From Candidatus Cloacimonadales bacterium (lineage in GTDB: Bacteria; Cloacimonadota; Cloacimonadia; Cloacimonadales; JAIOQZ01), in NCBI GenBank assembly GCA_963662655.2, contig CAXXTU010000002.1, forward strand, positions 3,456,001 to 3,520,000: a stretch of 64,000 nt of DNA, written 5' to 3'. The position numbers and the translations under genes are program-made. Below, in pieces: positions 4,675-45,587 of the stretch (position 1 is its first letter; every line of letters begins with the position of its first letter). Below the pieces are notes generated by a model. That model was not told the origin of the DNA and ran no database searches. It saw nothing but the letters and a program-made list of their open reading frames with translations.

Positions 4675-4675
4675 C

Positions 4676-6722: not shown

Positions 6723-6808
6723 GCGCTCGAAGAAAAAAAGAATTTATCGTAACCTCAATAGATTGATCGAAATACGTAAACAGGCGATTCCCTGTAAAAC
6801 AAAAATGA

Positions 6809-6836: not shown

Positions 6837-6843
6837 TAATAGC

Positions 6844-7230: not shown

Positions 7231-7232
7231 CA

Positions 7233-9826: not shown

Positions 9827-9850
9827 GTATCCTCCATAAAATAATGATCT

Positions 9851-26513: not shown

Positions 26514-26641
26514 GGCGGGGCATCTTCGCCCGATTCCGCTTTACCCCGGGGATATACCACATCCTTGGAATAATTGAAGTCTGGAATCAAGGATGTGAAA
26601 CACCCCGCGGCAAAGCGGAATCGAACCAATCTGCTCCCGCC
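26514..26641. repeat. Dispersed long-hairpin element, copy 1
   Basis: GGCATCTTCGCCCGA ... TCGAACCAATCTGC bracket nested inverted repeats CGATTCCGCTTT/AAAGCGGAATCG and CACATCCTTG/CAAGGATGTG. Confidence 0.92.
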
Positions 26642-26764
26642 TCTGCGAAAATGAATCGCCGTTTTCCGATGGTTATGGAAGCAATAAAGAGTAAAAAACT
26701 GTGTGGAATACGTTTTTCTTGACACGAGCTTGTGGTAAATGCGTTTGGATAAACAGGTGAAACT

Positions 26765-27601
26765 ATGAAAAAGAAGAAAATCCAGCGTAGGAAAAATATT
26801 GTACAGGACTACGTAGAGGCGTTGCTGTTCGCGTTTGTGGTGGCGATGATCATACGTAACTACACGTTCCAGAACTTCATGATCCCGTCATCGTCCATGG
26901 AATCGACCATGCTGATCGGCGATTACCTGGTGGCGGACAAGATCAGCTTCCTCGTTGAGGATCCCGAGCGGGAAAACATCGTAACCTTCCGTTATCCGGC
27001 CGATCCCGTGACGCCGCAACCATCGGAGAACTACACGCGTCTGCTTGGACCGATCTACTGGAATCACGACAGCATGTTTTTCGCGTACCATGCTCCGAAG
27101 AACGTGGTGAAACGGGTGATCGGCATGCCGGGCGACTCGGTTCGCATCGTGAATCAACGAGTGTACGTCAACGGTGAGCCCATGATCCGAGATTACGAGC
27201 AGCATGTCGATCCGCAGAACTGGATGGGCCGCAACGCGCAGGGCGATCTGGTTGAGAGCCCCATCGTGTGGAGCCGCGGCAACTTCCCGGGCGCGGATGT
27301 CAGCTTTGGGCAATACGAGGGCAAGGAGATGGGTACGCGTGACGACTTCGGGCCGATTATCGTCCCCGAGGGCAGTTACTTCGTACTGGGCGACAATCGC
27401 GACCGCAGTCTCGACAGTCGTTACTGGGGATTTCTCGATCGCAAGTGCATCACCGGTACGCCGCTTCTGATTTTTTTCTCCGTTGGTGAAGAGCCTATCA
27501 AGAACATGCGCGAATACGCTTATTATATGAATCTGATGCGGCAAGGTAAGAAACCGCCTTCACGAATACGCTGGGAGCGTTTCTTCAATCTGATCAAATG
27601 A
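26765..27601 (+). CDS. lepB: Signal peptidase I
   Basis: IPSSSMEST, VKRVIGMPGD, LGDNRDRSLDSRYWG. Confidence 0.96.
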   Translation: MKKKKIQRRKNIVQDYVEALLFAFVVAMIIRNYTFQNFMIPSSSMESTMLIGDYLVADKISFLVEDPERENIVTFRYPADPVTPQPSENYTRLLGPIYWNHDSMFFAYHAPKNVVKRVIGMPGDSVRIVNQRVYVNGEPMIRDYEQHVDPQNWMGRNAQGDLVESPIVWSRGNFPGADVSFGQYEGKEMGTRDDFGPIIVPEGSYFVLGDNRDRSLDSRYWGFLDRKCITGTPLLIFFSVGEEPIKNMREYAYYMNLMRQGKKPPSRIRWERFFNLIK

Positions 27602-28701
27602 TGGCCGTTCGGCATGTCTATGTCCACATTCCCTTCTGCGTGAGAAAGTGTGGATACTGCTCGTTCTTCTCCATTCCTTCCGACAGCGTTACCGATTTCA
27701 CCCGTTTCAAAGCTCGCTACATTCGTTCTCTCCGAAATGAGATCGAGCTATTTTCAGAATACAATCAAATCATACCTGAAACCATATATTTTGGCGGGGG
27801 AACGCCCTCGCTGCTCACCGCAAGCGAGATCGACTCGATCGTAAGCGCGCTTGATCCCTCAGATGGTTGCGAGATAACTCTGGAGATGAACCCGGCCGTG
27901 ATCGCATCACCATTGGGCGATTATCGCAAGGTCGTTAACCGTGTGAGTTTGGGCGTGCAGTCGTTCATCGATAGCGAATTGAAGCTTCTGGGGCGCTTGC
28001 ATGACTCGGCGAAGGCGACCGATATCATCGGGAGAATTCGCGAGGCGGGATTCGGCAATCTGTCCATCGATCAGATGTACGGATTGCCCGGGCAGGGGAT
28101 CGAAGAGATTCGCTTCAACCTTGCGAGGATCAACGAGATCAAGCCGGAGCACGTGTCCATCTACTGCCTGAGTCTGGAGCCGGACGCTCCCATGTATGGA
28201 GCGTTGCTGCCGGAAGATGAAACGGTGGCTGATTTTTACGAAGCTTTACGCAAGGGTCTCTTGGGATATGAGCAGTACGAGATATCCAATTTTGCCTTGC
28301 ACGGATGCCAGAGTCGGCACAACAGCGCATACTGGGATGGGGTGGATTACATCGGACTTGGCGCGGGTGCTTCCGGCTATGTGGATGGTCAGCGATACAC
28401 CAATTGTGAGAGCGTTCAAGGTTATATGGAGAATATTGAACGCGGTATCATCCTGCCGGATGCGGAAATGCTCGACCGTGAAGAACGTCGGAAGGAGATG
28501 GTCATGCTATCCCTGAGAAAGATGAAGGGTCTCGATCTGGCCGGATATAAAGAGAGTTTCGGAAGCGATCTGGTGCAGGAAAAGGTGCAGGTAGTCTCCA
28601 GATTGGAGCAGGATGGCTATGTCATCGTAGAGGACGGTTTTTTACGGCTGCTTCCCAAAGGATTCTTCGTGTCGAACGAGATTATCGGTCAGATTCTTTA
28701 G
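27598..28701 (+). CDS. hemW: Radical SAM heme chaperone HemW (HemN-like)
   Basis: YVHIPFCVRKCGYC, YFGGGTPS, RVSLGVQS, YEISNF, HNSAYW. Confidence 0.92.
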   Translation: MMAVRHVYVHIPFCVRKCGYCSFFSIPSDSVTDFTRFKARYIRSLRNEIELFSEYNQIIPETIYFGGGTPSLLTASEIDSIVSALDPSDGCEITLEMNPAVIASPLGDYRKVVNRVSLGVQSFIDSELKLLGRLHDSAKATDIIGRIREAGFGNLSIDQMYGLPGQGIEEIRFNLARINEIKPEHVSIYCLSLEPDAPMYGALLPEDETVADFYEALRKGLLGYEQYEISNFALHGCQSRHNSAYWDGVDYIGLGAGASGYVDGQRYTNCESVQGYMENIERGIILPDAEMLDREERRKEMVMLSLRKMKGLDLAGYKESFGSDLVQEKVQVVSRLEQDGYVIVEDGFLRLLPKGFFVSNEIIGQIL

Positions 28702-28716
28702 ACTCTTGCTCGTCAA

Positions 28717-28849
28717 ACGGGGGGCATCTTCGCCCGATTCCGTTTTACCCCGGGAATATATCACATCCTTGGAATTATTGAAGGCTGGAATCAAGGATGT
28801 GAAACACCCCGCGGCAAAACGGAATCGAACCAATCTGCTCCCGCCTCGT
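28717..28849. repeat. Dispersed long-hairpin element, copy 2
   Basis: Near-identical to copy 1, with the compensatory change CCGTTTT/AAAACGG versus CCGCTTT/AAAGCGG. Confidence 0.92.
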
Positions 28850-28912
28850 GCATATATTTGCAAGTTGTGACGTTGATAAACGATTGCAAGGGCGTCCTTC
28901 GGTATTAAATAA

Positions 28913-30259
28913 GGCACTGTTGCAAACTTAGTGGGTAAGTCGAAAAAAAGATTGAGAGGAATCACCCGATCTCGTACAATCTCCTAATCACCACAACAAG
29001 GAGATAGAGATGAATGATCCTCTCAGAAAACAAGTCTGTAAAACGTTGTTGGCTTTGCAAGGTTATTCTGCCGACCAGATAATCGAAGGTACGTATCAAA
29101 CTTATCCATGCATTGAAGTCCATGTTCGAAAGGAAGATGAGCCACGTTGTCCTACATGCGGTATTGTGGGAACAGTTTATGATCATCGAGTCCGCAAAAT
29201 TCTTCATGCATCCATATCCTGTCGTCCCGTAGTACTTGTGCTAACGCTTCGCCGGATCAACTGCGCTCAGTGTGGAGTGAAAACTGAACAACAGGATATT
29301 GCCGAGGGTCTCAATCGACACTCTAAAGACTTCGGCAATAAGGTTCTCCAGTTCACGCTTCGTTCAGACAATGCTTCTGTAGCACGGATATTCGGTGTGG
29401 ATCGGAGTACGATTTATCGAATCGACAAAATTGAGTTATCCAAGTTGGAAAAGGGTTATAGAGGACGAGTTCCGAATGTCGATCAGATTGCAATTGACGA
29501 GATTGGTTATAAGCGAAGGCATAAGTATGCAACGGTTATCACAAACCATGAGGACGGGCGTGTGATCGACCTGACAATGGGCAAATCGAAAGAAAGTGCG
29601 AAGGAGTTGTTTCGAAAATACGAACGACGACTCCGCTGGATTGATACCGTAACAATGGATTTCAGTGGTTCATATATCGGCGCTGTTTCCGAGTGTTGGA
29701 GTGCCGATATGATCGTATTTGATCGTTTCCATTTCAGCCGCCTGGTCAACAGGAAAGTGGAAGAAGTACGACGAGAACTTCAGAGAGATTTTGAATCTGA
29801 CAAGTTGCGTCAGAGCAAGAAACACGACCGGTGGTTGGTTTTGACCAGAAAACACAATCACAAAGAAAACCATCAAGCCCGACTCAAGAAACTGGAGACG
29901 CTAAATCATCCCCTTTACGAAGCCTATTTGCTCAAAGAAGATTTACTATCGATTTTCGAAGACGATATTACGCAAGAAGAAGCGAAGCCGATGATTGAAG
30001 AGTGGTGCAGAGTTATTCAGAAAACCGTCTTCGAGCCACTGAAGGCACTTGCAAGAACGATTATGAAGAGATTGCATATTGTGTTGAACTGGTTCAAGCA
30101 TAGAATCACGAATGCCAAGGCAGAAGCGGTTAACAACGTCATTCGAACCATTATAAAGAGAGCGTATGGATACAAGGACTTCTCATACTTCAGATTGAAG
30201 GTTCTGCAATGTTGCGGATATCTGAATACCCATTCACCCACTTAATATGCAACAGTGCC
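28913..30259 (+). mobile_element. ISL3-family insertion sequence (1347 bp), complete
   Basis: Imperfect 24-bp TIRs GGCACTGTTGCAAACTTAGTGGGT and (reverse complement) GGCACTGTTGCATATTAAGTGGGT; 8-bp direct repeat TTAAATAA at 28905-28912 and 30260-30267. Confidence 0.95.
29010..30245 (+). CDS. ISL3 family transposase
   Basis: Zinc finger CPTCG...CAQCG, IAIDE, TMDF, FDRFH, TNAKAEAVNN, AYGY. Confidence 0.95.
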   Translation: MNDPLRKQVCKTLLALQGYSADQIIEGTYQTYPCIEVHVRKEDEPRCPTCGIVGTVYDHRVRKILHASISCRPVVLVLTLRRINCAQCGVKTEQQDIAEGLNRHSKDFGNKVLQFTLRSDNASVARIFGVDRSTIYRIDKIELSKLEKGYRGRVPNVDQIAIDEIGYKRRHKYATVITNHEDGRVIDLTMGKSKESAKELFRKYERRLRWIDTVTMDFSGSYIGAVSECWSADMIVFDRFHFSRLVNRKVEEVRRELQRDFESDKLRQSKKHDRWLVLTRKHNHKENHQARLKKLETLNHPLYEAYLLKEDLLSIFEDDITQEEAKPMIEEWCRVIQKTVFEPLKALARTIMKRLHIVLNWFKHRITNAKAEAVNNVIRTIIKRAYGYKDFSYFRLKVLQCCGYLNTHSPT

Positions 30260-30322
30260 TTAAATAATTGACATTTTTATCGTATATTCCCCAACTTCTA
30301 CAGCAAAGTAGAGGAGTTTACG

Positions 30323-31420
30323 ATGAAGCGCACTATATATGGATTTTTACTCGCTTTTTTGGTTTCTTTCATACTGACATCATGTGATATACAGCTCCGG
30401 AGCGACGCCCCGTACAAGCTGATCGATCCGGACAACAGCACCATGGTGTATGGGGTGTATCCGCAGGGGGATGGAACGTACAAGATGGTTGTCCATACAA
30501 ATACCCCGACGAAGACACCAAAGTCGGAGATATGCAGCTTTGATTCCGACTGGCAGATTACGGAAAGGAAGCCATTGCCGCTTGATTCACTGGCCGTGAT
30601 CAAGAAGGTGGTTGAGGGTCCTGCGTCATACTGGATGGTCGTGCAGAATTATGTGTACGGAGAAGGTTTTTCGACATCCATCTTGCAGGTGGATCGCGAA
30701 GGCAACGAGCTCTTTCGGGAGCAGATTGCAACCTCCGCTGAAATGCTCGATCTCGACGTCTTCATGCAGGACGGCGAAGGTACGATGGTCATTTATCGGC
30801 CGGATCAAACGTTGTTCTATCGTTTCCGCGATCGCGAGATTGACCACGACTACCTTGTGGTCGGTCAGCCGATCGATCGTGTGAGCGTCCATCCGGATAA
30901 AGCCGGCGCACTGTATGCATCCGGCATGATCGATGGCGTTCTGACCATTTTCGAGTTCAACCTTGCGAATCAGGTGTTTTCTCCGATCCTCTCAACAACC
31001 GGTTTTCCCGAGGGCTTGAAAGTGCGGGATTTTGCAATAGGAGCAAAAACGCTGGTTGCATTATACCATGCGCAACTTAACGACGCACCGCCTTCCGACC
31101 AGTTGATCTATGTTGTCTCGCCGGATAATCCACCCATTCAGATTCCCTACAAAGGCTTCGTTACCGATTTTCTGGATTGGAACGGAACGCAACTGATTGC
31201 TGGGGTTGAAAAGGAAGGCGAAAAGACGCAACGAACATCCGCGGTGAAAATCCTGGAAGTTACCGACGACAACACAACGAAAGCCCTCCATCGCTACGAT
31301 CCTAAAAACCTCGTGATACCGGAAGCAATCCTGAGCGGAGACACGGTTATCCTTTATGGTCATGTCGGGCACCCGCTGCTGGGTCTGACCGGATTTGTTC
31401 AGGAAATCGCATTGAAGTAG
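30323..31420 (+). CDS. Hypothetical lipoprotein (beta-rich)
   Basis: Lipobox LTSC after a hydrophobic signal; SD GAGGAG. Confidence 0.75.
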   Translation: MKRTIYGFLLAFLVSFILTSCDIQLRSDAPYKLIDPDNSTMVYGVYPQGDGTYKMVVHTNTPTKTPKSEICSFDSDWQITERKPLPLDSLAVIKKVVEGPASYWMVVQNYVYGEGFSTSILQVDREGNELFREQIATSAEMLDLDVFMQDGEGTMVIYRPDQTLFYRFRDREIDHDYLVVGQPIDRVSVHPDKAGALYASGMIDGVLTIFEFNLANQVFSPILSTTGFPEGLKVRDFAIGAKTLVALYHAQLNDAPPSDQLIYVVSPDNPPIQIPYKGFVTDFLDWNGTQLIAGVEKEGEKTQRTSAVKILEVTDDNTTKALHRYDPKNLVIPEAILSGDTVILYGHVGHPLLGLTGFVQEIALK

Positions 31421-31580
31421 GCGGTATTCGTTCGCTTCTTGGATTTAATGGTTTGCATGAAAGAATCTGCTGCTGTCTACAGTATAGCAAAGCTGCCGGA
31501 AAATTCTTGTGGACAGAAAATCCGCTTCGGCGAAAAGATATCCTGAACAAAGACTGTTATTTGCATCAGGAGGATATAGA

Positions 31581-31838
31581 ATGGACGAAATGAGAGAGCT
31601 GAAGCAGATTATTATCGATGATCTCAAGCTGGAAGGACTCGATCCGGAAGATATTCAGGACGATCAACCGTTGTTCGGTGAAGGCCTTGGACTGGACTCC
31701 CTCGACGCAGTTGAATTGGTGGTGATTCTTCAGAAACATTACGGAATTGAACTCAAGGATATGGACAAGGCTCGCGAAGTGTTCACCAACATGAATACGC
31801 TCGCCGAATATGTAAGAGTGAATCGGAAGAAGCAATGA
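31581..31838 (+). CDS. Acyl carrier protein
   Basis: PLFGEGLGLDSLDAVEL (Ppant serine); AGGAGG before ATG 31581. Confidence 0.93.
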   Translation: MDEMRELKQIIIDDLKLEGLDPEDIQDDQPLFGEGLGLDSLDAVELVVILQKHYGIELKDMDKAREVFTNMNTLAEYVRVNRKKQ

Positions 31839-34020: not shown

Positions 34021-34645
34021 TCTGATCGTCCTCTGCTTGATGCTGGTGGCCATTCTCGGAGGACTGGGTACCGATGAGCTTTTCCGGCAGTTCCAGGAGA
34101 ATACAGCGAATCGTACCGGTTTCACGGCGAACTTCGAACAAGTACGCCACGTTTCTCTTTTCATGGACGAGCTTCGCGCCGAGGGAAAATGTTGGTTCGA
34201 GAAGCCCGACAAACTCCGATGGGAGATTACCTCTCCGTACCAGAGCATCATGATATACAATGATGGCGAGATGGGGCGGTTCGAGCTCCGCGACGGTGAG
34301 TGGCGTGAAATGGATACGGGCGCAAAAGACATGATGGGCGCGGTTCTCGGGCAGATTTCGGCCTGGATGGAAGGGGACTTCGAGCAGGCTTCGCAGATGT
34401 ACGGGATAACCCTCCGGGAGGAAGAGAATCCCGTGGTAGTTCTGGAACCGGCGAATCAGGAACTCCGCGATTTGATCCACTCGATCGAGCTTACGATCGA
34501 TCGAAGAGTATGGGGAATAACCAGCGTCAAGATTCGAGAGAATGAAGGTGACTATGTCATGATCCAGTTCACGGGGCAAATCGATAATCCGAAGATCGAT
34601 CCCAGGATTTTCGATCCCGACCATCCCACGACTTCCCATGAATAG
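33998..34645 (+). CDS. LolA-like lipoprotein carrier
   Basis: FTANFEQ.R, G..WFEKPDKLRWE..SPY; N-terminal signal peptide. Confidence 0.85.
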   Translation: MSIRLRANLIVLCLMLVAILGGLGTDELFRQFQENTANRTGFTANFEQVRHVSLFMDELRAEGKCWFEKPDKLRWEITSPYQSIMIYNDGEMGRFELRDGEWREMDTGAKDMMGAVLGQISAWMEGDFEQASQMYGITLREEENPVVVLEPANQELRDLIHSIELTIDRRVWGITSVKIRENEGDYVMIQFTGQIDNPKIDPRIFDPDHPTTSHE

Positions 34646-35336
34646 AATTCTCACGCTCTGCTTTGTATTCCTTGCCTTGATCGCTTGCAGCAATACACGT
34701 TATTTACAACCCAATCCGTACGAAAACCCTGACCTGAAACGACGATACATCGATGTCGCCGAAAACCGGTTTCCGGCCAGCTTCACATCTCAGCAGCGAA
34801 TCGTGCTAAGCGTTGGAAGCAAGGAGTATGATTTCATCGGATTTCTGGCTGTCCGGGGCGATTCGATACGCGCTGTCGCGATGAATGAATTCGGCGGCAA
34901 GATGTTCGACCTTCTGGATAACGGTTCGACCGTTTCCCTGCTTACCAATGCACCGAAATTGCCGGAAAATCCCATCATCGAGGGTGTCGCCGGCGACCTC
35001 AGGTTATGTTTTCGTGCGCTCCCGGCAAGCAAGTACAAGCTGGGCCTGATGGGCCTTGAACCGGTGTTGACGGGCGTCGATAGCAGGGGTGCAGTCAGGC
35101 TGTTCGAGTTCTCGAATCAGGAGAAGCAGACGGTTCATTTGATCGAGGTCGTGAAAGGGGAAAAGATACGTGAGGCGAACATCCGCTTCAAACAGGATTA
35201 CCGTGAGCCGGTGCAGATCGAGGTTGTCAATCACAAGTGGCATTACAGCATGAATATACAGGTTCTTAAAATCGAAGACACATTACCGGACGAGAAGCTT
35301 TTCGAGAACACCAAGGCCAAACGGAGCGAGCGGTGA
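34638..35336 (+). CDS. Lipoprotein, DUF3261-like
   Basis: Lipobox LIAC, ..FGGKMFDL, DL.L and C-terminal N....Y...I pattern; typical neighbour of LolA and MMPL. Confidence 0.7.
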   Translation: MNRILTLCFVFLALIACSNTRYLQPNPYENPDLKRRYIDVAENRFPASFTSQQRIVLSVGSKEYDFIGFLAVRGDSIRAVAMNEFGGKMFDLLDNGSTVSLLTNAPKLPENPIIEGVAGDLRLCFRALPASKYKLGLMGLEPVLTGVDSRGAVRLFEFSNQEKQTVHLIEVVKGEKIREANIRFKQDYREPVQIEVVNHKWHYSMNIQVLKIEDTLPDEKLFENTKAKRSER

Positions 35337-37735
35337 GGAGAGCGCTTTTCTTTGCATCGATCATCGTCCTGAGCGTGTTACTGGGATACTCGGCTTCCGG
35401 TATACGTTTTGACGAAGATGTGATGAACCTCCTTCCCGACGGCGACCACGAGATTGCCCGTCTGAGGACTCTACTCAGCCAGTTCGGGTTCTCCAACCGA
35501 GCGCTGTTCCTGGTGGAGGCGACGCAGGGAGATGAACCGCCTTTCGCGATCGCCGATTCTCTGGCACGGCGATTGAAGGCGAGTACGCAGTTCACGGATG
35601 TTCAGGCCCGGTGGGACTTAAAGCAACTCCAGGATGCGCTGGACTTTCTACGGGAGCATCGCGCAGCCATTCTTGATGAAAGCGACATGGAAGAAATCCG
35701 TGAGCGTTTCGCGCGGGAATCGATCCGAACGCGTCTGGACGAGTGGAAGAAGGCGTTAACGATGTCCTTCGATCCATTTTCGGCAAAGCAAATGGCGAGG
35801 GATCCGCTCGGGCTGGACAGTCTCTTGACGGTCAAGCTTCAGATCATGCAGTCCGGCGGAATCAAGGTTATAAACGGATGGCTGATAACACCGGACAATC
35901 GGGGGATTCTGGTCACCGCTCAGCCTGTTTCCAGCGGAACGGACAATACTTCGGCCATAGAGATGGTGAAGGAGATGGATGAAGCGATTGCCCAACTAGG
36001 CTCGATAGCTCCCGATGTGCGCATAAGCTGGCTTGCAGGGCACCGTTTCACAGCCGAGAACGCAAGCCGCATCAAGCGGGACGTCTCGCTCACGGTAACC
36101 ATTTCGCTGATCATGATTATTCTTCTTTCGATTCTGGTGTATCGAAGGCTGTACTTTATCCTGCTTACGCTTGTGCCGGCGCTATTCGGCTCCCTGGCCG
36201 CGCTCGGGATCACGAGGGTTTTCATACCGCAGATTTCGGCTGTCATCGCCGGAACGGGAGCGATGCTCATCGGAATTGCGGTTGACTACGGGATTCATCT
36301 GCTCTACCACATCGATGGTTCGGAAAAGATCGAGCGTCGTGAGATTGGTGACGTTGTCCGTCATCTGCGAAAGCCGCTTTTCTTGGGAGCTGGGACAACT
36401 CTGGCAGCGTTTCTGGCGCTGCAATTCAGCATTCTTCCCGTTTACCGGCATCTGGGGATTTTTGTGGGTGTTGGAATAACAGCTTCAGCGCTTTTTACGG
36501 TGTATGTCTTGCCGGAGCTGATCAAAGGCGGAGGCGTTGCGCGCAAGCCACTGGTGGGGCTCGAATCTGCATTCACCAGTCTTTTCCGCCAAACGGACAA
36601 GCTCGGTTTGTGGCTGTGGATACCGATTGCGGCAATATCATTGTTGCTTCTTCCGGGTTTTCTTCGCGTACGATTGGAGGGGGACCTGCAATCGTTAAAC
36701 GCTACCTCGCAGAGGCTTGCGGAAGACTGGGCGATCATCCAGGACCGATTCTCTGGTGTCACGCCTTCGACGCTGATCGCAGTCAGCCGGGAGAATACGC
36801 AGGAAGCGCTGGATGAAAACCTTCAGCTGCAAGCTTTCCTCCATACATTGCAGGCAAATGGCGAGCTTCAGTCGGTTCGATCCATCGCTGCTCTAATGCC
36901 CTCACGGTCCAGACAGCAAGAAAACATTTTACGTTGGCATACGTTTTTCAGTGACCGTGAATTGATGCGTATTCGTGCGGATTTTCAGGCGATTAGCGAT
37001 GAATTGAGGATCAACGCAAAGGTGTTCGATTCCTTTTTAATAGCATTGGAGCGTTCGACGGAGAGCTTCGGATACAAGGATATCCGCTCGGGCTTGCTCA
37101 GGCAGATGATTTCGGGATATTTCATCGAGAGCGAGGCGGAGACGACGGTGATAACCGGTGTTGAAGCGCCAGGAGATGTCGAGTCGCTTTACGAGAAGGT
37201 GGAAACACGATTTAGCGATGCGGTGATTTACAATGGTCAGGCGTTTATCCAGCGCGTAACGCGAACGATTTACCACGAACTCGCGAAGATCAGTATCGCC
37301 GCGCTTGTCTGCGTCTCGCTGTTCATGCTGATTTTCGGCGGTAAGCGAGGGAGGTCGTTCCTGTTGCTTCTACCGCTTCTGGTGACACTTTACTGGACTT
37401 TTGGGATTTTAGGAACTCTGGGGATTTCCGTAAACCTGATCAACTGCATTGTCTCGATCTTCATTTTCGGACTGGTCATCGATTACTGCATTTTTCTTGC
37501 GGAATCCACGACGAACAACGAAAGCAGCCGGTATCGGGTGCGTTCGGGTGGGGCGATTCTTGTATCAGCGTTAACGACCATGTTTGCTCTGGGCTCGCTT
37601 GTGCTGGCGCATCATCCCGCGCTGCATTCGCTTGGGCTTACAGCGCTTATCGGCATATCAAGTGGGTTGATTTCCGTTTTTCTGCTCGTTCCCATCCTTT
37701 TCAGGAGCAGGGGAGAGGATTCTTCCTGCCGGTGA
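35333..37735 (+). CDS. MMPL/RND family exporter
   Basis: Two TM bundles with GIAVDYGIH and GLVIDYCIF, plus large periplasmic loops. Confidence 0.9.
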   Translation: MRRALFFASIIVLSVLLGYSASGIRFDEDVMNLLPDGDHEIARLRTLLSQFGFSNRALFLVEATQGDEPPFAIADSLARRLKASTQFTDVQARWDLKQLQDALDFLREHRAAILDESDMEEIRERFARESIRTRLDEWKKALTMSFDPFSAKQMARDPLGLDSLLTVKLQIMQSGGIKVINGWLITPDNRGILVTAQPVSSGTDNTSAIEMVKEMDEAIAQLGSIAPDVRISWLAGHRFTAENASRIKRDVSLTVTISLIMIILLSILVYRRLYFILLTLVPALFGSLAALGITRVFIPQISAVIAGTGAMLIGIAVDYGIHLLYHIDGSEKIERREIGDVVRHLRKPLFLGAGTTLAAFLALQFSILPVYRHLGIFVGVGITASALFTVYVLPELIKGGGVARKPLVGLESAFTSLFRQTDKLGLWLWIPIAAISLLLLPGFLRVRLEGDLQSLNATSQRLAEDWAIIQDRFSGVTPSTLIAVSRENTQEALDENLQLQAFLHTLQANGELQSVRSIAALMPSRSRQQENILRWHTFFSDRELMRIRADFQAISDELRINAKVFDSFLIALERSTESFGYKDIRSGLLRQMISGYFIESEAETTVITGVEAPGDVESLYEKVETRFSDAVIYNGQAFIQRVTRTIYHELAKISIAALVCVSLFMLIFGGKRGRSFLLLLPLLVTLYWTFGILGTLGISVNLINCIVSIFIFGLVIDYCIFLAESTTNNESSRYRVRSGGAILVSALTTMFALGSLVLAHHPALHSLGLTALIGISSGLISVFLLVPILFRSRGEDSSCR

Positions 37736-37923
37736 CGGACGTGGCATCTTCGCCCGATCCCCCTTTGCCGCGGGGATATACCACACCCAATTATCCACTA
37801 ACATGATTTCGAGGAATGAAATCACAGCGTTCATGATTTCGTTTAGACTACGTCAAAGCCGAAAATTGGCTGTGGAACACCCCGCGGCAAAGCGGGATCG
37901 AACCAATCTGCTCGCGTCCTCGT
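37735..37923. repeat. Dispersed long-hairpin element, copy 3 (longer apex)
   Basis: Same basal motifs. Stems CGATCCC/GGGATCG, CTTTGCCGCGGGG/CCCCGCGGCAAAG, CCACA.CCAATT/AATTGG.TGTGG; the apex sequence differs from copies 1-2. Confidence 0.9.
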
Positions 37924-37936
37924 TGAGATAACGTTT

Positions 37937-39178
37937 TTAGAATTGGGTAATAGCCCAGGGTTTCTCGGGCAGTCCGAACAACTTCTTCAGCAGCGCTTCG
38001 CTATTGGGATTTTGTTTTCCGCAAAGACCGAATGCAAGGCATTTATCGATAGAGATTGCACCAACCATGAGCGACGAGAAGTTCTGGATCGTCATTTCCA
38101 GGGTGGCATCGACTTTTCGTTCTTTGGCGATCGCCGGTTTGCCTGCTTCCCAACGGACAGCTAATCTTGTTTTCGCTCCCGGAAGAAAATCGTCCTCGAT
38201 GCGGAACCTTATGGCGCAATCGACATTCTGCCAAGGGTAATGCATGATTGCTTGTGGGACGTCCATCACCCGGTACATGAATCCCATACCTGTCTGATAG
38301 GTCTCGTGATAGACCGGCATCACGAGTTCTCGGCTCGTGTGACGCGGGTCCGCCATCAGGTGAAGCAGGCTCTCGTCGAACATGGGGAGCAGAATCTCGT
38401 TGATCTGGTCGAGTTGCGCTTGCAGGAATCCAAGGATTCCGCGCAGAGATTCCGTGTTCTCGTATACCAGCGCGTAGATTTTGATGTCGTTGGTAAGGGG
38501 ATTCTTGCCCACTTTCTCGAATCCGAAGATCGCGTATGCTGTGATCTTGCTTCCCTTGCGGTAACCGATCCAGCGAATCACGGGATTCTTCAGGTCCTTC
38601 TCGAAGTCGTACCGTTGCTGACGGATCATCCCGTGGCGCATCTTCAGCACGCGTTCGTAGCAATTTTGAACGGCTGTCAGATTGTTGATCGAGAGGAACT
38701 CGACGTTGTCGCGGAGATCGGATGCAGGAAGTTGTTCAGGCCTCAAGCGGAAGAAGTGCTGCAGGATTCCGTGACCGTAGCCCATCTTGTAATAGAAGTC
38801 GGGACGGAAGGGATAGAGGATGGAAATGGCGGTTTTCTTTCCGACACAATATTGATGATACCAGGCAAGCATGTCACGCGCGACCTTCTTCTTCTTCTGC
38901 AGAAGATCCACGGCCACCAGTCCGATACCGGTTACAGGAATGATCTTTCCGTGGAAATTCATCTCGAAATCAAAGATGCGCATTCCGCCCATCAACATGC
39001 CATCGTCGAACAGACCGTACATGCGCTTGTTCGGACATTCGTCCTGTTCCTTGATCAACATCTCACGAAATCGCTTGCGCCTGTCGGGAGCATCGATAGC
39101 CCAACCTGGATACGCGTTGCGCGTGATTCCTTCAAATTGCTCGATCTCACTTGCTTCGAGTTTGCGTACGACTCTCAT
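37937..39178 (-). CDS. Eis-family GNAT acetyltransferase with SCP2-like C-terminus
   Basis: TGIGLVAVD, SILYPF..DFYYKMGYG, FMYRVMDV, IEDDFLP; start 39178 after SD GGAAGG. Confidence 0.88.
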   Translation of the reverse strand: MRVVRKLEASEIEQFEGITRNAYPGWAIDAPDRRKRFREMLIKEQDECPNKRMYGLFDDGMLMGGMRIFDFEMNFHGKIIPVTGIGLVAVDLLQKKKKVARDMLAWYHQYCVGKKTAISILYPFRPDFYYKMGYGHGILQHFFRLRPEQLPASDLRDNVEFLSINNLTAVQNCYERVLKMRHGMIRQQRYDFEKDLKNPVIRWIGYRKGSKITAYAIFGFEKVGKNPLTNDIKIYALVYENTESLRGILGFLQAQLDQINEILLPMFDESLLHLMADPRHTSRELVMPVYHETYQTGMGFMYRVMDVPQAIMHYPWQNVDCAIRFRIEDDFLPGAKTRLAVRWEAGKPAIAKERKVDATLEMTIQNFSSLMVGAISIDKCLAFGLCGKQNPNSEALLKKLFGLPEKPWAITQF

Positions 39179-39394
39179 TTTTCCTTCCTTACTTTCTTTT
39201 CGTTGCCCTGAAACCATATGCGAAGTCTGCACGACCGGCAGATTCTTGTCAAAGAGAAACCAAATGCGCTCGCAATAAGGGTGGGTGGGAACGCTTGCGC
39301 CTTGGAAGGCAATTTGCCCTCTCTTTTCCCCAGCAAATTGCATTACAAAGCGCAAGCGGGACCTCATAAAAACGAGTGCATTTGGTTTCTCATG

Positions 39395-39424
39395 AAAAAA
39401 GCCGCCTCAGTCGAAGCGGCTTTT
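39395..39424 (-). terminator. Rho-independent terminator (possibly bidirectional)
   Basis: Minus strand GCCGCTTC-GACT-GAGGCGGC-TTTTTT, 17 nt after the stop at 39442. Confidence 0.85.
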
Positions 39425-39441
39425 ATAGATTAACCGGTTTG

Positions 39442-41577
39442 CTATTTCATCAAGACCATTTTCTGGGTCTTGGTCGTGTTGCCTGCTTCGAGTTTGTAGA
39501 AGTAAACACCACTGGAAACAGCTTTACCGCTGTTGTCTTTACCGTTCCAAACAACCGTGTTGCTCCCCTGGTCGGCCTGGCCGTTGAAGAGGGTTTTGAT
39601 CTTCTGGCCGCGGATGTTGTATACGCTCAGGTTCGCGTTCATCTTCTGAGGAAGGCTGAAGCTGATGCTTGTTTCCGGGTTGAAAGGATTCGGGAAGTTC
39701 TGGTCGAGCGTTACAACCTGGCTAGCGCTTGGAATGCTGTTGTCGTCGGCATCCAAACCGAATTCGATATCGAGCGCCATGTACGTAACGCTACCACCGT
39801 TGTTGTCGCCAATATTGTTCTGTGCATACGATCCGAAGCTGTTGTCGTTGAAGTACAGCACGTGCAGCTTGCCGTGGCCTTCGCCCAAGTCTTCGATCAC
39901 ATCGCCAACATAGAGATAGCATGGAATCTGATCGTCGAGCTGCTGAACATAGTTGCCGTCGGGATCGGTTGCGAGAGCGTTCATGATGATCGGATCGCTC
40001 CAAGTCGTACCGTGGTCACTGGAAATGGCAATCATGATTTCAGGTTTGTCGGCCCAATCGACGTAATCCTCGGCTCCATACTCGTGGTAGAGATATTCCT
40101 TGGTTCCGTCCGACCATATTGCCGCCATCCAGCCATTGTCTTCATTGTAGGCAACCTTGAAGTAATTTTCGTGGAAAGCCTGCTCCGTATCGTAATAGAA
40201 GATCGGGAAGCATCTTTCCGAGACAACGCCACCGGTATCTTCGTAAAATTCGTCCACTACACCGTCTTCATTGGCGTCCCACGGCAAGAACGGCAGGCCG
40301 TCATTCGGAGTGGCGCTTTTCGGGAAAAGGTCGTAGCTGTAGAATTCATCGGTGTTGTTATCGAATATGAAGCTGCGCATCTGATGGAAGTCGGGCCAGT
40401 ATTTCAAATCTTCGCCTACATAACCCTGTAATGCGTAAGGCGCCTGGAAGTGAAGGCGGTTCTGAGCATCCCAGATTACATCCATGTGTCCCGCAAAAGA
40501 GAAAGAGAAGAAAAGCCCGGATGCGTCAGTTGGCCAGGTCGTGCCGTCTTGGTTTTGTGGACTTTCCACATACATTTCGGAGTTGACCGCGTGGAATTCC
40601 CACTCGCCTTCGCAGAAGTTCTCGTTGATCAATACGAAGAAATCGGGATCGTCTTCCACGAAGTAATCTTCGCCACCGGCAAGGTGACCGAAGATCGCGA
40701 ATTTTCCGTCCATTGTGCAGTCAGCGGAGAAGAACGGGCGCATCCAATCCGGATCGGCATTCCATTCGTCCATTTTAGGGATGGTAATGTATTGCCAGTC
40801 AAGAGTCGGGAATGTACCGGATTCGATATCCATTGTTGAATAATCGACAAACGCGATCATCACGTTTTCGGATGGATTGTCGGCAGTTGAATGAGCCGTG
40901 TGGTTGTTGCCCAGAACATAGACACGGTGCTTCCCATCCTGATCGAAGCTCGGCGCTTTGCTGATGTACACATACGGCCAGATGAATTCGTCGTCTTCGA
41001 ATGGAGGTTCAATTGGCATTGAATCCCAGTCGCTGTTTCTGATTACGACATAAGGGCTGCTCAAGAGGCCGGGCGAGCCGAGAAGATGCCATACGTCCAT
41101 TCCGAACGCGACATCATAAAGTGTACCCACACCGGATTCCAGATGCCACGCATAGAATGGGTCCTGGGTTGCCGGGTCGAGATCGATACCGATATAGCCT
41201 TCGTACACGTCGGTTTGACCGATGTAGTTGGTCGAGTTGATGGTGCCGTCCGGTTCAATGTAGGTAATGAAGGAACGGCGCTCGGCCGCTGCGGTTTCCT
41301 GTCCGTGGAACGCGATATAGACACCGCCGTCTTCCTGAACCTGAACTGGGTTTTCATTATAGCTACCCATCATGTAATCGAAGAAAGATGTCTGAATTGC
41401 TTCCGGTTCGGTAATAAAAGACCACACAGGCACTTCACGCGTTCTTGTGTGACTTGCAGAATAAACGGTTGCTTGTTCGAATCGAGCTTCTTTTTGAGGT
41501 CCAGCCTGCATTGCGTCTGCAAAAAGCATACAACTGAAAATTATAAGAAGCATCGAAATTCCCAAAACTCGTTTCAT
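39442..41577 (-). CDS. Secreted acidic protein with T9SS type A / FlgD-Ig C-terminal sorting domain
   Basis: Signal peptide; C-terminus QNFPNPFNP...VYNIRGQKI...WNGKD..G..VSSGVYFYKL...KMVLMK. Confidence 0.88.
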   Translation of the reverse strand: MKRVLGISMLLIIFSCMLFADAMQAGPQKEARFEQATVYSASHTRTREVPVWSFITEPEAIQTSFFDYMMGSYNENPVQVQEDGGVYIAFHGQETAAAERRSFITYIEPDGTINSTNYIGQTDVYEGYIGIDLDPATQDPFYAWHLESGVGTLYDVAFGMDVWHLLGSPGLLSSPYVVIRNSDWDSMPIEPPFEDDEFIWPYVYISKAPSFDQDGKHRVYVLGNNHTAHSTADNPSENVMIAFVDYSTMDIESGTFPTLDWQYITIPKMDEWNADPDWMRPFFSADCTMDGKFAIFGHLAGGEDYFVEDDPDFFVLINENFCEGEWEFHAVNSEMYVESPQNQDGTTWPTDASGLFFSFSFAGHMDVIWDAQNRLHFQAPYALQGYVGEDLKYWPDFHQMRSFIFDNNTDEFYSYDLFPKSATPNDGLPFLPWDANEDGVVDEFYEDTGGVVSERCFPIFYYDTEQAFHENYFKVAYNEDNGWMAAIWSDGTKEYLYHEYGAEDYVDWADKPEIMIAISSDHGTTWSDPIIMNALATDPDGNYVQQLDDQIPCYLYVGDVIEDLGEGHGKLHVLYFNDNSFGSYAQNNIGDNNGGSVTYMALDIEFGLDADDNSIPSASQVVTLDQNFPNPFNPETSISFSLPQKMNANLSVYNIRGQKIKTLFNGQADQGSNTVVWNGKDNSGKAVSSGVYFYKLEAGNTTKTQKMVLMK

Positions 41578-42032
41578 AAATCCTCCTGTTCATGGAAAGT
41601 TGACATATCTGGAACCGTGAACAAGAAAATATCCAGAGCTGGTATAGATAAGAAACAAGAGAAGCGATTAAATGTCAAATGAAAAATTCAATGTAATGCC
41701 GATTTTAATTTTTCAGTTCGCATTCTTACGGAAGACTATTCGGTGTCTTCTTGAAAATTATCTCCAATCGCAAGTTCTGTAACGATAATTATGATAACAG
41801 AATAGGGTGCATGTCACGCTTGCGGGGAAGATGCTCGATCTCTGTTTTCTGAACAATGATTGCGAGCGATATTCATTTCCATGGATTCTTATCAAGGAGA
41901 TTGGGTAATCGTTTTCCTAAGGCGTTGCCGATAACCGGATCGAGAAAAGTCCGGGAAAGGATATTTGTTTCCTTGCTTGACATTAAATCTCCGGCGGCTA
42001 TGAATGGAACATCCATATAACTAGGAGTAATT

Positions 42033-43286
42033 ATGTCCGTAACAGCAGTTCTGGGATGTCTTTGGGGCGATGAAGGAAAAGCGAAGATCGTCGATGCGCT
42101 TGCAGCAGAAGCCGATGCGATTATCCGTTTTCAGGGCGGAAGCAACGCAGGCCACACGATCGTAAAGGATGGCGAAAAATATGTTTTCCATCTCGTGCCG
42201 TCCGGTTTGCTCTATCCAAGCAAACATTGCTTCCTTGGCGCTGGCACCGTAATCGATCCCGAGATGCTCATTCAAGAAATGGATGAGCTGAAAGCAAGAG
42301 GGCTTTCTTTTGAAGGCAGGTTCTTCATCGATCCGAGAGCCGCGATCGTACTTCCGTTGCATAAAGAACTCGATGGGTCCAGAGAAGACGAGGCCGGGAA
42401 TTCGAAGATCGGTACGACTCGCAGGGGTATCGGTCCTGCTTATGCGGATCGCGCTTCGAGAATAGCGCCGCAGTTGATCGACCTGATGGATACGAAGATT
42501 CTCAAGAATAGCCTCGAGCGCATTTATCGATTCCACAATCGAGACATCGACGATCTGGATCGGGTTACGGATCGCTTGTTGCGATTGGGTGAGTTGCTCA
42601 AGCCCTATTTCGCGCAAGTGCCCTACATCCTGAATCGATACTACGGAAGCGGGAAAAAGCTGTTGTTCGAAGGGGCGCAGGGAAGCCTGCTCGATATCGG
42701 TTTCGGAACATACCCGTTTGTGACCTCATCGTACACGACTGCCGGCGGTATCTCGGCGGGAAGCGGATTTCCCCCGAATCGCATCGATCGTATCATTGGC
42801 GTATACAAGGCATATACCACCCGCGTGGGTGAGGGGCCTTTCCCAACGGAGCTTCACGATGAACTCGGACAGAGGATCCGTGAGCAGGGCAACGAATATG
42901 GGGCTTCGACAGGCCGTCCACGTCGTTGCGGCTGGTTCGACGCGGTTGCGGCACGCTTCACAGCGATGATCAACGGCGTGACGGAAGGCGCATTGACCCT
43001 GGTGGATGTGCTCAGCGGCATCGATACCCTGAAAATCTGCGTTGGCTACTGCGTCAACGGAGCAAGCGTCCGTGAAATGCCGTTCAACATGCATGATCTC
43101 GAAAACGCCCAACCGATCTATGTCGAAATGAAGGGTTGGAACGAGGACATCACGGGCATTCGTAATTACGACGATCTCCCAGAGGCTACAAAGCAATACA
43201 TAAAGACACTTGAAGAGATGGTTGGTGTCCGGTATACCATCATCTCGGTCGGAGCAGACAGAAACCAAACCATTTACCGCATTTGA
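42033..43286 (+). CDS. purA: Adenylosuccinate synthetase
   Basis: WGDEGKAK, GGSNAGHT, EGAQG, TRVGEGPFPTE, TGRPRRCGW. Confidence 0.98.
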   Translation: MSVTAVLGCLWGDEGKAKIVDALAAEADAIIRFQGGSNAGHTIVKDGEKYVFHLVPSGLLYPSKHCFLGAGTVIDPEMLIQEMDELKARGLSFEGRFFIDPRAAIVLPLHKELDGSREDEAGNSKIGTTRRGIGPAYADRASRIAPQLIDLMDTKILKNSLERIYRFHNRDIDDLDRVTDRLLRLGELLKPYFAQVPYILNRYYGSGKKLLFEGAQGSLLDIGFGTYPFVTSSYTTAGGISAGSGFPPNRIDRIIGVYKAYTTRVGEGPFPTELHDELGQRIREQGNEYGASTGRPRRCGWFDAVAARFTAMINGVTEGALTLVDVLSGIDTLKICVGYCVNGASVREMPFNMHDLENAQPIYVEMKGWNEDITGIRNYDDLPEATKQYIKTLEEMVGVRYTIISVGADRNQTIYRI

Positions 43287-43296
43287 AGAGGAAGCC

Positions 43297-44508
43297 ATGA
43301 AAGGTAAGACACTGTTACTTCTTCTTGTTCTGAGCCTGGTTCTGCAAATGGTTGCCCAGGACCGCATCTCGTATGCAGCGCCTGAATTCATGCAATGCAT
43401 CTACGATCAGTATTCGAAAAACTATCTCAACATCAACGCCATGGGGCGTGGGAACACGGGAACCGCCTTTCAGGAAGGGCTGGAGAATGCCGGGGCGAAT
43501 CCGGCCGGTTTCACCGCAGAATGCACGGCGGTTCATTTCGAGTTCATCCACAAGAACAATGTCAGGGAGATGAACGAAATCGAGTTCCGCCAGAATGACG
43601 CGATTTTTACGTACGAAACCCGTAAACGGCAGACCTACCAGTCGACCAATCCCATTGCCTACGCCGGCGTTGGATTCCGCGTGGTGGACGGACTTTCCGC
43701 GGGATTCAGCTACGGGATGACGCAGTCGATCGAGTATGAGGATTTCACGCGCGAGATGAGTGACGACTCGTACTACATCCTGTCGCCGTCCTATACGGCC
43801 TCGCGGTTGTCGCTTACGACGAGCTACGCATTCAAACAGCTTCGTGCCGGGCTGAACATTCACTATTGTATCTATCAGCTCGACGATTATCGATATTACT
43901 ACCAGAACAACCGGACGGACGCGACCGAAACGCTTTTCCGTTTCCAGCCCGGTATCCAATACGATCTCAAACATTTTACGATAGGCGCTTCCTACACGCC
44001 CAAGGCGTCGCATACCTTCGATCTCGATAACGAAGAACGTTATGACGTGACGTTCCCTTCGGTACTTTCGGGCGGTGTCGTGTTCCGCATGAAGGACTTC
44101 CGTGCGTCCGGGGATGTCGAGTACGAGCGTTGCAGCGAGCAGTCGTCCGATTTCGATGACCGAATCCGGTGGAAAGCGGGAATCGAATTCGATTATCTGT
44201 ATTCGACGCTGCGCCTGGGATTTATGTATGTGCCGGGAGTATTTGCGGGAGAATATGAATATCCTGACGGTGGATACGGGGGGAATCAGAATCCTTATTA
44301 TCCGGCTGAAGGTTATGATTACGGGCGTATCGGCGACAGCGACCAGGCGTTCCTTACCGCCGGCTTCACCATGCGATCCGCGCTTGGCGATTTCTCGTTC
44401 GGTATCATGACGGATATCATCGGCGATGTCCCGGTTACGATGGGAATGATCGGTATTACGCTCGATTCGGAGAGGATGCCCACGCCGAGGAGAGGTCACA
44501 AGGAATAG
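43297..44508 (+). CDS. Putative outer-membrane beta-barrel (FadL/PorV-like)
   Basis: Signal peptide, AMGRGNTG...ANPAG motif, Tyr/Gly-rich strands. Confidence 0.65.
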   Translation: MKGKTLLLLLVLSLVLQMVAQDRISYAAPEFMQCIYDQYSKNYLNINAMGRGNTGTAFQEGLENAGANPAGFTAECTAVHFEFIHKNNVREMNEIEFRQNDAIFTYETRKRQTYQSTNPIAYAGVGFRVVDGLSAGFSYGMTQSIEYEDFTREMSDDSYYILSPSYTASRLSLTTSYAFKQLRAGLNIHYCIYQLDDYRYYYQNNRTDATETLFRFQPGIQYDLKHFTIGASYTPKASHTFDLDNEERYDVTFPSVLSGGVVFRMKDFRASGDVEYERCSEQSSDFDDRIRWKAGIEFDYLYSTLRLGFMYVPGVFAGEYEYPDGGYGGNQNPYYPAEGYDYGRIGDSDQAFLTAGFTMRSALGDFSFGIMTDIIGDVPVTMGMIGITLDSERMPTPRRGHKE

Positions 44509-44521
44509 CCCTCCTGCCGAT

Positions 44522-45421
44522 ATGCTGGAAATATTTATAAAGCTTTTGCCGGTAATCGGGACGTTCGTTCTCGGGATATTCTTGCGGAGATTGCGGGTCT
44601 TCGACGAGACGCACGCCGCGCTCTTCCTGAAGCTTGTTCTTTTTGTCGCATTACCGGCTTACGCTTTTGTATCTGTGGCGGAAATCGACCTGAAACTCAA
44701 ATACCTGTGTCTTCCGCTGGTCGCGATTGGAACCTATCTGATCATCTGGGCGGTGAGCTTTTTTATCGGGAAACGAATGGGGCTCGATCGGCGTCGGCTG
44801 GGATCGTTTGTCGTGGGATCGCTGATCGTCAACATCGCATTTGCAATTCCGTTTATTCTGTCTGTGTATGGCGAGGAAGGACTCGCGTACGCCTCATTGT
44901 ACAATTTAGGCAATGGTGTGATGACCTTTTCCTTCACATACTTTCTGGCTGTCCGGTTCGGGATGGAAGGCGACAAGAAAATACCCTGGGGCAAGATATT
45001 CGGTCTGCCGCCCGTTTGGGCGCTTTTTCTCGGTCTGTTCTGGAACGTTGCCCATGTACCGATGCCGGGAGCGCTTTCCGACTGGACGAAAATGCTGGGA
45101 ACGTTGATCACTCCCCTTGTGATGCTCTCGCTTGGTATCTACTTCAAGCCCCGCTTGCAGGCTATCCGGCACATCATTCCCGCGATGATCATACGTAGCG
45201 GGGTCGGTTTTATCATCGGTATCACGATATGCTCGATCTTCGGCTGGAGCGGGACGCTGAGCAAGATCATCGTCCTTTGTTCCGCGGCTCCGATCGGATA
45301 CAACACGCTTGTGTTCTCGGTGATGGAGAACCTGGATATGAAATACGCCGCGTCGCTTGTTTCGTTCTCGATCCTGTCCGGCATGATCTACTATCCATTG
45401 CTGATCTGGTGGCTGGGATGA
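44522..45421 (+). CDS. AEC family (auxin efflux carrier-like) transporter
   Basis: About 10 TM helices; VALPA, N..FAIP...YG, P.VMLSLG, AAP. Confidence 0.88.
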   Translation: MLEIFIKLLPVIGTFVLGIFLRRLRVFDETHAALFLKLVLFVALPAYAFVSVAEIDLKLKYLCLPLVAIGTYLIIWAVSFFIGKRMGLDRRRLGSFVVGSLIVNIAFAIPFILSVYGEEGLAYASLYNLGNGVMTFSFTYFLAVRFGMEGDKKIPWGKIFGLPPVWALFLGLFWNVAHVPMPGALSDWTKMLGTLITPLVMLSLGIYFKPRLQAIRHIIPAMIIRSGVGFIIGITICSIFGWSGTLSKIIVLCSAAPIGYNTLVFSVMENLDMKYAASLVSFSILSGMIYYPLLIWWLG

Positions 45422-45431
45422 CCTGTTTCTG

Positions 45432-45587
45432 TCCGGGGCACCTTCGCCCGAATGCGCCTCCGCCGTATAACAACACGTCTTCCGCTGTGCTATCCGGGGC
45501 GTGAGGTGAATTGCGGTTATCGAGGCGCACAGCTCCAAACGTGTATGAATACGGCTGCGGTCGAATTCGAACGAATCTGCCGCCGGA
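45432..45587. repeat. Dispersed long-hairpin element, copy 4 (divergent interior)
   Basis: GGCACCTTCGCCCGA ... TCGAACGAATCTGC; interior of unrelated sequence still forms stems GCCGTAT/ATACGGC, ACACGT/ACGTGT, GCTGTGC/GCACAGC. Confidence 0.8.

Follow-up and report, generated by a model that had tools for sequence, protein, structure and literature searches.

The 64,000-nucleotide stretch of DNA analyzed here (the window: positions 3,456,001 to 3,520,000 of contig CAXXTU010000002.1, assembly GCA_963662655.2, from a Candidatus Cloacimonadales bacterium) carries four copies of an intergenic hairpin element. They belong to a family with about 147 copies in the genome that, among the genomes searched, is confined to one genus of the Cloacimonadales. 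Our favored reading, to which we give a probability of roughly 55%, is that the family is a gene-less dispersed repeat acting as folded single-stranded DNA (ssDNA), and that a putative strand-specific protein reads two loops of the fold, spreads the element and exchanges modules between copies. Strand A denotes the strand on which an earlier note, made from the letters of the window, had read the copies (plus in the window), and strand B its complement (minus in the window). The genome of the window is called G000 (3.81 Mb, 99% complete; the contig of the window is 3.68 Mb) and its three congeners G001, G002 and G003.

Anatomy of the hairpin

From the outside in, a copy consists of a variable 6-bp stem, a one-base bulge, a conserved loop 1, a second variable stem (stem 2), a conserved loop 2, a further variable stem and a variable terminal loop. 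Each window copy folds far better than shuffled sequences (z −6.95, −4.24 as DNA; −8.21, −3.11 as RNA). The earlier note had described two arms as the only part shared by the four copies, forming an asymmetric base with a single recognition motif. This description has to be revised on all three counts. A second conserved internal loop, loop 2, is present in all four copies 15–17 bp inside loop 1, so that there are two loops. The supposedly asymmetric base is itself made up of two symmetric 2x2 loops, one reading on the minus strand as tandem G.A pairs and the other as tandem T.G pairs. Loop 1 is, on strand B, a continuous helix in which the tandem G.A reads GA/GA in 145 of 223 copies and the tandem T.G reads TT/GG in 149 of 223, the commonest changes of the latter restoring T-A. 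Where its two T.G pairs change, they become T-A or C-G, and only 0/74 and 2/74 copies leave them unpaired. The spacing between the loops is 15–17 in 125 of the 133 class I copies and in 23 of the 35 class II copies, in which the two arms of loop 2 have traded places while staying on the same strand, without inversion. Class II makes up 10 of 119 classified copies in G000 (28 are unclassified) and 11/29, 6/28 and 8/32 in the congeners.

The claim that the stems covary is borne out. Two-sided changes are found in 29 of 48 pairs among 32 copies and in 36 of 48 pairs among 74 copies of the four genomes, and 0 of 500 shuffles reach either count; the 74-copy alignment was fitted to the model, and relatedness among copies inflates both counts. 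The outer 6-bp stem has 78 variants in 125 copies, and stem 2 is free of mismatches in 17 of 108. Some stems have visibly been made perfect through the copying of one arm, either of the two, onto its partner, so part of the covariation may be mechanical, arising from arm-to-arm copying instead of selection. Symmetrised loops, in contrast, number only 2 among 239 copies for loop 1 and none for loop 2 in the same set, a rarity that calls for selection or protection.

Long copies, such as the third of the window, contain a second repeat that is also found free-standing and in tandem arrays, and long interiors match 25 bins of G000 outside any hairpin copy. Their terminal loop is A-rich on strand A (653 A, 280 T) and contains GTAG/ATAG. 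In G000 the terminal loop of class I copies carries a self-complementary tetramer, TCGA (40) or CCGG (6), unmixed in 46/46; this covariation is weak or absent in the congeners, where mixed forms occur. The tetramer could serve loop-to-loop pairing of two hairpins. A sigma-70-like reading of the two loops was dropped, their spacing in that reading being about 22.

Copy number and taxonomic range

The search of the genome and its relatives for the paired motifs, which the earlier note had suggested, was productive: about 147 copies here and about 30–60 per congener. The motifs give 127 matches in G000, two of them by chance, and none in the reversed genome. A covariance model gives 132 matches (150 of 1440 candidates scored), four of which are the opposite strand of a copy; the total of about 147 was reached after merging and adding half copies. 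The congeners have 32, 38 and 61 model matches, corresponding to about 32, 33 and 59 distinct copies. Copies are spread evenly round the G000 chromosome and are solitary, with a median spacing well over 10 kb, next to housekeeping genes. Half copies exist, as do back-to-back pairs.

No family match was found in 148 other genomes of the phylum (22 candidates scored per genome), in 4 other genomes of the taxonomic family, in 37 other genomes of the order (broader model), or in viral contigs, plasmids or phages, where exact patterns miss diverged relatives. Two pattern matches in metagenomes and one in an alphaproteobacterium were rejected as chance. The proposed comparison with Rfam gave no known family matching the element above its gathering score. 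A literature search, with subscription journals outside its scope, returned no description of the family and no paper on Cloacimonadota together with a repetitive element. The main text of a survey of intergenic clusters from 2026 makes no mention of the lineage; the supplements of that survey could hold the family.

Folding strand

Strand B is more stable than strand A in 127 of 134 copies when folded as DNA. Stem 2 mismatches read on strand B in 108 copies are G.A in 150 cases against 7 of C.T, G.T in 60 against 12 of A.C, and G.G in 32 against 4 of C.C, counts of non-independent events, as many of these mismatches are inherited via shared motifs. Of 39 short copies, 35 have a tip that is a Y-GNA-R triloop whose middle base is free, and CGNAG is divided 128 versus 29 between the strands. 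Read on strand A, these tips are TNC triloops and not UUCG tetraloops closed by C-G. GCGNAGC mini-hairpins with a sheared G.A pair are described as far more stable as DNA than as RNA (PMC13037366). We infer that strand B folds as DNA.

The earlier note had proposed a conserved single-stranded fold, either RNA or ssDNA. The fold stands, and the minus-strand fold, the GNA triloops and an orientation that follows replication even against transcription (below) together favor the ssDNA branch over RNA. A link to plus-strand mRNA finds no support.

Orientation relative to replication

Replichores of G000 were defined with the origin set at dnaA and the skew minimum, and those of the congeners by local GC skew for 91 fetched and parsed copies out of about 124. 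In G000, 103 of the 142 copies on the main contig have strand A as their leading-strand sequence (p 8e-8), as do 95 of 126 when eight back-to-back pairs are left out. In convergent and divergent gaps strand A leads in 54 of 71 copies, compared with 1571 of 2790 genes (56%), and among tandem-gap copies it leads in 35 of the 46 that are sense and 14 of the 25 that are antisense. Across the congeners strand A leads in 83 of 91 copies, including 20 of the 21 tandem copies that are antisense to both neighbors, and the polarity reaches up to 29/29 in G001. One orientation exception in G001 has loop 2 perfectly paired. Other repeats of G000 do not share the pattern: generic intergenic GNA hairpins show no orientation bias (42/75 loci), nor does the captured module of long copies (7/11), and the GIY-YIG-associated (Ssn-type) repeat leans the opposite way (26/37, p 0.02). 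The replichore orientation rule is family-specific within the genome.

Strand B therefore sits on the leading-strand template, that is, off the lagging-strand template. In 25 of 30 sedentary integrons the leading template carries the recombinogenic attC strand (PMC5371416), which is the better folder of the two, rich in G.T pairs and G, with a GAA tip (PMC5027507). IS200 elements, in contrast, follow lagging-strand ssDNA (PMC3971601). The polarity resembles that of attC sites in sedentary integrons and not that of IS200-type insertion, which suggests that copies are filtered by retention and not by insertion. All stabilising features being on strand B, we prefer a reading in which B is active and disfavored when exposed over one in which A is the inserted strand.

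Under this proposal strand B would fold in the cell when replication or repair unwinds the DNA. A putative protein would bind both loops, 15–17 bp apart, and exchange between copies would happen at or near them. A folding strand lying on the lagging-strand template would fold more often, and its copy would be lost or rewritten more often, which would produce the orientation rule, as has been argued for attC sites of sedentary integrons.

The eight back-to-back pairs are 7–37 bp apart and always diverge on strand A (Table 1); no tail-to-tail pair was observed.

Module exchange and orthologous sites

All 108 parsed copies differ from one another. Similarity in one of outer stem, stem 2 and interior does not correlate with similarity in the others (rho 0.04–0.09; 0.05 for stem 2 against interior). 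Among 38 pairs of copies with near-identical stem 2, the interiors are unrelated in 23 and the outer stem is shared in 3. Between G002 and G003 there are 16 pairings, one of whose one-flank rows is probably not orthologous; 10 match on both flanks (nine distinct G003 sites). In all 10 the outer stems are alike (0.87–1.0), and stem 2 is at 0.94–1.0 in five and 0.47–0.73 in the other five (background 0.54). The class differs in 1 of these 10 pairs and in 5 of the 16 overall. The copies at L181 and L067 (one flank, 95%) have an identical interior and different stem 2 arms on both sides, which could reflect two successive conversions or an exchange within the folded duplex. The mosaicism of modules and the orthologous sites back the replacement of interiors that the earlier note had called swappable.

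A copy stands at the orthologous gene end in G000 for 15 of 30 G001 rows, 7 of 30 G002 rows and 4 of 22 G003 rows. Some syntenic sites are empty in one congener, with edges that cannot be fixed; the suggested comparison of empty and filled sites thus gave presence and absence at syntenic sites and no exact empty site. Genes flanking congener copies usually map to distant places in G000. As for local hopping, neighboring copies are barely more alike than random pairs (p 0.04, 0.11, 0.41). No RNA read set was listed, and contigs of the two DNA read sets, both from one sample that is probably the source, hold no joint removing a whole copy, which proves nothing. Mobility of the element is something we only infer, as enzyme, exact empty site and excision joint were all not found.

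Search for a cognate enzyme and other evidence against the proposal

Several results weigh against a mobile element read as ssDNA. No cognate enzyme was found among the families searched (Y1/RAYT, tyrosine recombinases, IntI, GIY-YIG, reverse transcriptase (RT) and DUF559; IS110, relaxase and Rep families were outside the search), and neither a Y1 transposase nor a DUF559 gene is present in G000, where copies are most numerous. The Y1, DUF559, GIY-YIG and RT genes of the congeners carry other repeats or none. Strand B is also the better folder as RNA, in 133 of 134 copies, so energy alone cannot separate DNA from RNA. The congener replichore calls are noisy, being based on the GC skew of 3–20 kb loci. 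Tandem gaps of G000 favor sense copies, 46 versus 25, with a split of 14 to 11 along lagging-oriented genes, and transcription may add an orientation effect in this genome. The position of B on the leading template is the opposite of IS200-type insertion into lagging ssDNA if B is the transferred strand. Many sites are common to the congeners at about 75% protein identity and, all parsed copies being different, there is no sign of a recent burst. Finally, alignments gave no exact empty site, the four syntenic sites compared having either diverged too far or been filled by other repeats.

The 13 Y1 loci in the three congeners carry other repeats, the best scoring 26 bits with the model. Integron integrase TIGR02249 was over its cut-off in 0 of 8 genomes of the taxonomic family, and control genomes likewise gave none; Y2 transposase (IS91) was found in 0 of 4 genomes, and no control genome gave a match either. 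Six tyrosine recombinase matches are XerC/XerD-like or lie in prophage-like regions, and chance explains the one copy that follows xerD. Short GIY-YIG genes are flanked by another repeat and not by the hairpin family. A tblastn search of G000 with 26 congener nucleases matches only a broken GIY-YIG gene, 33 kb from the nearest copy. An RT gene (L190, G000:C2:981000-982600) with one internal stop and a defence-type look has no adjoining hairpin copy. No arm lies next to a transposase or round an open reading frame (ORF) in G000 or in the fetched unpaired congener matches. Of 276 flanking proteins, the 122 of 330 aa or less were inspected by eye. Of the partners that the earlier note had named, HUH/RAYT, IS200, tyrosine recombinase, GIY-YIG and RT genes were not found linked to copies.

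In two congeners (L095, L096) xerC is immediately followed by an IS200-like Y1 gene with its repeats, the two genes being convergent. The broken GIY-YIG (Ssn-like) gene of G000 (L008:1100-1900, G000:C2 about 885000) has its own hairpin repeat, with about 40 genome copies, whose GNA strand is the leading sequence at 26 of 37 loci. Mimicry of dif was considered and rejected: the arms are identical to a putative dif site at 9–17 of 28 positions at best, like two control sequences.

Comparison with known systems

The family works like a REPIN whose strand logic resembles that of attC, and it belongs to neither group; its distinctive features are the two-loop geometry, the family-specific replichore rule and the swaps at the level of single loci. 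Like the REPIN/REP sequences associated with RAYT, it is a gene-less, lineage-specific, intergenic hairpin of ~100–130 nt in high copy that crowds behind genes, with compensatory arm changes and with conserved mismatches as likely recognition features (PMC3116915, PMC8266576, PMC3733652). A long hairpin, compensatory changes and a RAYT are described as REPIN features (PMC3116915), and CGTC repeats are likewise reported without a known transposase (PMC3733652). Unlike these systems, the family has no GTAG/CGTC tag, no inverted pair of short REP palindromes and no RAYT flanked by the element, and it adds two fixed non-canonical loops at set spacing, module shuffling, an arm-swapped class and strong replichore polarity. 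At the outer end of 147 copies the REP tetranucleotides occur, on the two strands, in 1 and 2 (GTAG), 0 and 5 (GGAG) and 16 and 1 (CGTC) cases, and flank profiles show no fixed tetramer.

Core sites of attC are RYYYAAC and GTTRRRY at the two ends; this pattern is found in 0 of 239 copies. The earlier note had seen no target duplication, REP tetranucleotide or attC core in the window, which holds for wider copy sets. The likeness to attC lies elsewhere: one strand is the better folder through G.T pairs and G skew, attC having a GAA tip (PMC5027507); there are two conserved boxes, a spacer whose length is set and a terminal structure that varies (PMC5027507, PMC5371416); and the folding strand lies on the leading-strand template (PMC5371416). 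The copies could be about 150 solitary attC-like recombination sites without an integron, at which a putative recombinase exchanges or inverts segments at the two loops of the folded duplex. Such exchange would swap tips between loci, replace the middle stem on both arms and flip loop 2 (class II), and the replichore rule would keep the sites mostly silent. We regard this as unlikely. The family differs from attC sites in that the copies are solitary beside housekeeping genes and not in cassette arrays, no IntI is over cut-off in the 8 genomes searched, and the long terminal loops are T-rich on the folding strand.

NTS/SRM repeats read by Ssn are abundant ssDNA hairpins with sequence- and structure-specific reading (PMC11893778), and G000 has an Ssn-like gene with its own repeat. 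However, SRMs are 20–50 nt long (PMC11893778), and GIY-YIG genes here are flanked by another repeat of opposite replichore lean. For the question of how REP-like hairpin repeats spread and persist without a nearby enzyme, the family is an unusually clean test case: its two loops are invariant and evenly spaced, its folding strand is known, its replichore rule is not followed by other hairpin repeats of the genome, and natural swaps occur at the same locus. A protein found to recognise the two loops would amount to a new structure-specific ssDNA enzyme or a new replication signal. If no such protein exists, the family shows to what extent repair and conversion by themselves imitate RNA-like covariation, a caution for motif discovery.

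Alternative explanations

The hairpins could also serve the host as a chromosome signal, with a replication or repair protein binding the folded leading-template strand (for restart, priming or anchoring) and the copies spread and homogenised by gene conversion and arm-to-arm repair, with no dedicated enzyme. The degree of polarity in G001, the even chromosomal spread, the sites kept across congeners and the arm-copied perfect stems are in line with this, as are the MutS- and MutL-like genes present by motif and the lack of a mobilising enzyme among the families searched. Restriction to one genus, a copy number ranging from about 32 to 147, nesting with and capture of other selfish repeats, and the existence of half copies and back-to-back pairs argue otherwise, and we consider such a signal improbable.

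A structured RNA or 3' mRNA element (a stabiliser, processing site or antisense RNA) transcribed from neighboring genes would account for the placement of copies. By our own gene calls, on which the gap classes rest, convergent gaps are favored (62 of 142 copies versus 157 of 1052 gaps of 130 bp or more) and divergent gaps avoided (9 of 142 versus 270 of 1052), so that copies crowd behind stops. The strong covariation and the excess of sense copies in the tandem gaps of G000 point the same way. However, tandem copies of the congeners are 16 sense and 21 antisense and yet 83 of 91 copies follow replication, the strand that would be present in most mRNAs here is the poorer folder, and the tips are GNA triloops, not GNRA or cUUCGg tetraloops. 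The copies lack a U tract (7 and 0 of 125), 0 terminators were found, and there is no Rfam match. That copies point with the upstream gene, as the earlier note had stated, is true in the window and does not extend genome-wide, where 25 of 71 tandem-gap copies are antisense and 62 of 142 copies lie in convergent gaps. An RNA element is accordingly quite improbable.

ERIC is an imperfect palindrome of about 127 bp, intergenic, with internal indel variants and TA ends. The family shares the intergenic imperfect palindrome and the variants with internal insertions and deletions; it differs in having no TA ends or target duplication, in ends that vary by locus and in an orientation set by replication. 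ERIC has been named as a miniature inverted-repeat transposable element (MITE) (PMC3733652). A further reading is that the family is a MITE of the ordinary kind, which has imperfect terminal inverted repeats, is mobilised in trans by a DDE transposase acting on double-stranded DNA, and covaries as a by-product of arm copying. This would suit its length of 110–190 bp, conserved imperfect inverted arms, internal indels and intergenic spread, the many genome copies of ISL3 and IS3-like elements and the replication bias reported for ISL3 (PMC3971601), but is very unlikely, as it is already weakened by the lack of target duplication (direct repeats in the flanks of 125 copies are no longer than in shuffled pairs), the outermost stem is variable and locus-specific unlike terminal inverted repeats, no arm matches the end of an insertion sequence or brackets an ORF, and a mechanism working on double strands leaves the strand-specific G.A and GNA features without a role. 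One congener site has an imperfect flanking repeat.

Window copies and neighboring elements

The four coordinates of the earlier note and its plus-strand reading were all confirmed (Table 1). It had also placed the copies 0–15 nt past the stops of recX, hemW, MMPL and AEC genes, with which the Pfam matches and the measured gaps of 12, 15, 0 and 10 nt for copies 1–4 agree.

Table 1 Features of the window and back-to-back pairs of G000 (positions are those of the window unless a contig is named; the strand of a copy is its folding strand)
Feature	Position	Strand	Description	Model score
Copy 1	26514-26641	-	Class I, short terminal loop	129.5 bits
Copy 1, loop 1 arms	26520-26533, 26621-26634
Copy 1, loop 2 arms	26550-26560, 26595-26603
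Copy 2	28717-28849	-	Class I; nearly the same as copy 1, with compensatory changes	116.3 bits
Copy 2, loop 1 arms	28724-28737, 28825-28838
Copy 2, loop 2 arms	28754-28764, 28799-28807
Copy 3	37735-37923	-	Class I, long	107.2 bits
Copy 3, loop 1 arms	37744-37757, 37898-37911
Copy 3, loop 2 arms	37774-37784, 37872-37880
Second repeat module	37790-37866	none	Independent, inside terminal loop of copy 3; edges approximate
Copy 4	45432-45587	-	Class II
Copy 4, loop 1 arms	45438-45451, 45567-45580		As in other copies
Copy 4, loop 2 arms	45465-45476, 45541-45552		Order swapped
recX-like gene	25866-26501	+	PF02631; upstream of copy 1; host context, outside element
hemW-like radical SAM gene	27598-28701	+	PF04055 and PF06969; upstream of copy 2; host context
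MMPL gene	35333-37735	+	Pfam match fits MMPL; stop codon touches copy 3; host context
GNAT gene	37937-39367	-	Convergent, ends on far side of copy 3; host context
AEC-family transporter gene	44522-45421	+	PF03547 (Mem_trans); upstream of copy 4; host context
Back-to-back pairs	G000:C2 13781, 90000, 1230300, 1274100, 2254765, 2349455, 2468381, 3341169

Other repeats adjoin the family mainly in the congeners. A hairpin like the Rfam motif Acido-Lenti-1 lies 3' of strand A in 25 of 92 congener copies versus 1 of 147 in G000, and a DUF559-type repeat tail lies 5' of strand A in 27 of 92 versus 3 of 147. The Rfam matches to Acido-Lenti-1 (L186:2797-2842, L185:2660-2704 and L184:2462-2504; 50, 35 and 33 bits) are a REP-like repeat adjoining the element. 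Y1 transposase genes of 137 aa in L095 and L096 are flanked by a similar hairpin, an indication that the Acido-Lenti-1 'RNA motif' is a transposase-linked DNA repeat.

An ISL3 element at 28890-30270 of the window (transposase 29010-30245) is one of 12 near-identical genome copies. Three of the 12 adjoin a hairpin copy, near a rough chance estimate, and targeting of the hairpins by ISL3 was rejected. A TPP riboswitch (L043:5738-5829) upstream of thi4 is directly next to a hairpin copy. The window also holds a large bacterial SRP RNA at 47224-47484 (183.9 bits), and a Mu-like prophage is present in G000 in several near-identical copies (C2 about 400-10000, 477000-509000, 2730000-2758000 and 3290000-3322000; C1 11000-25000).

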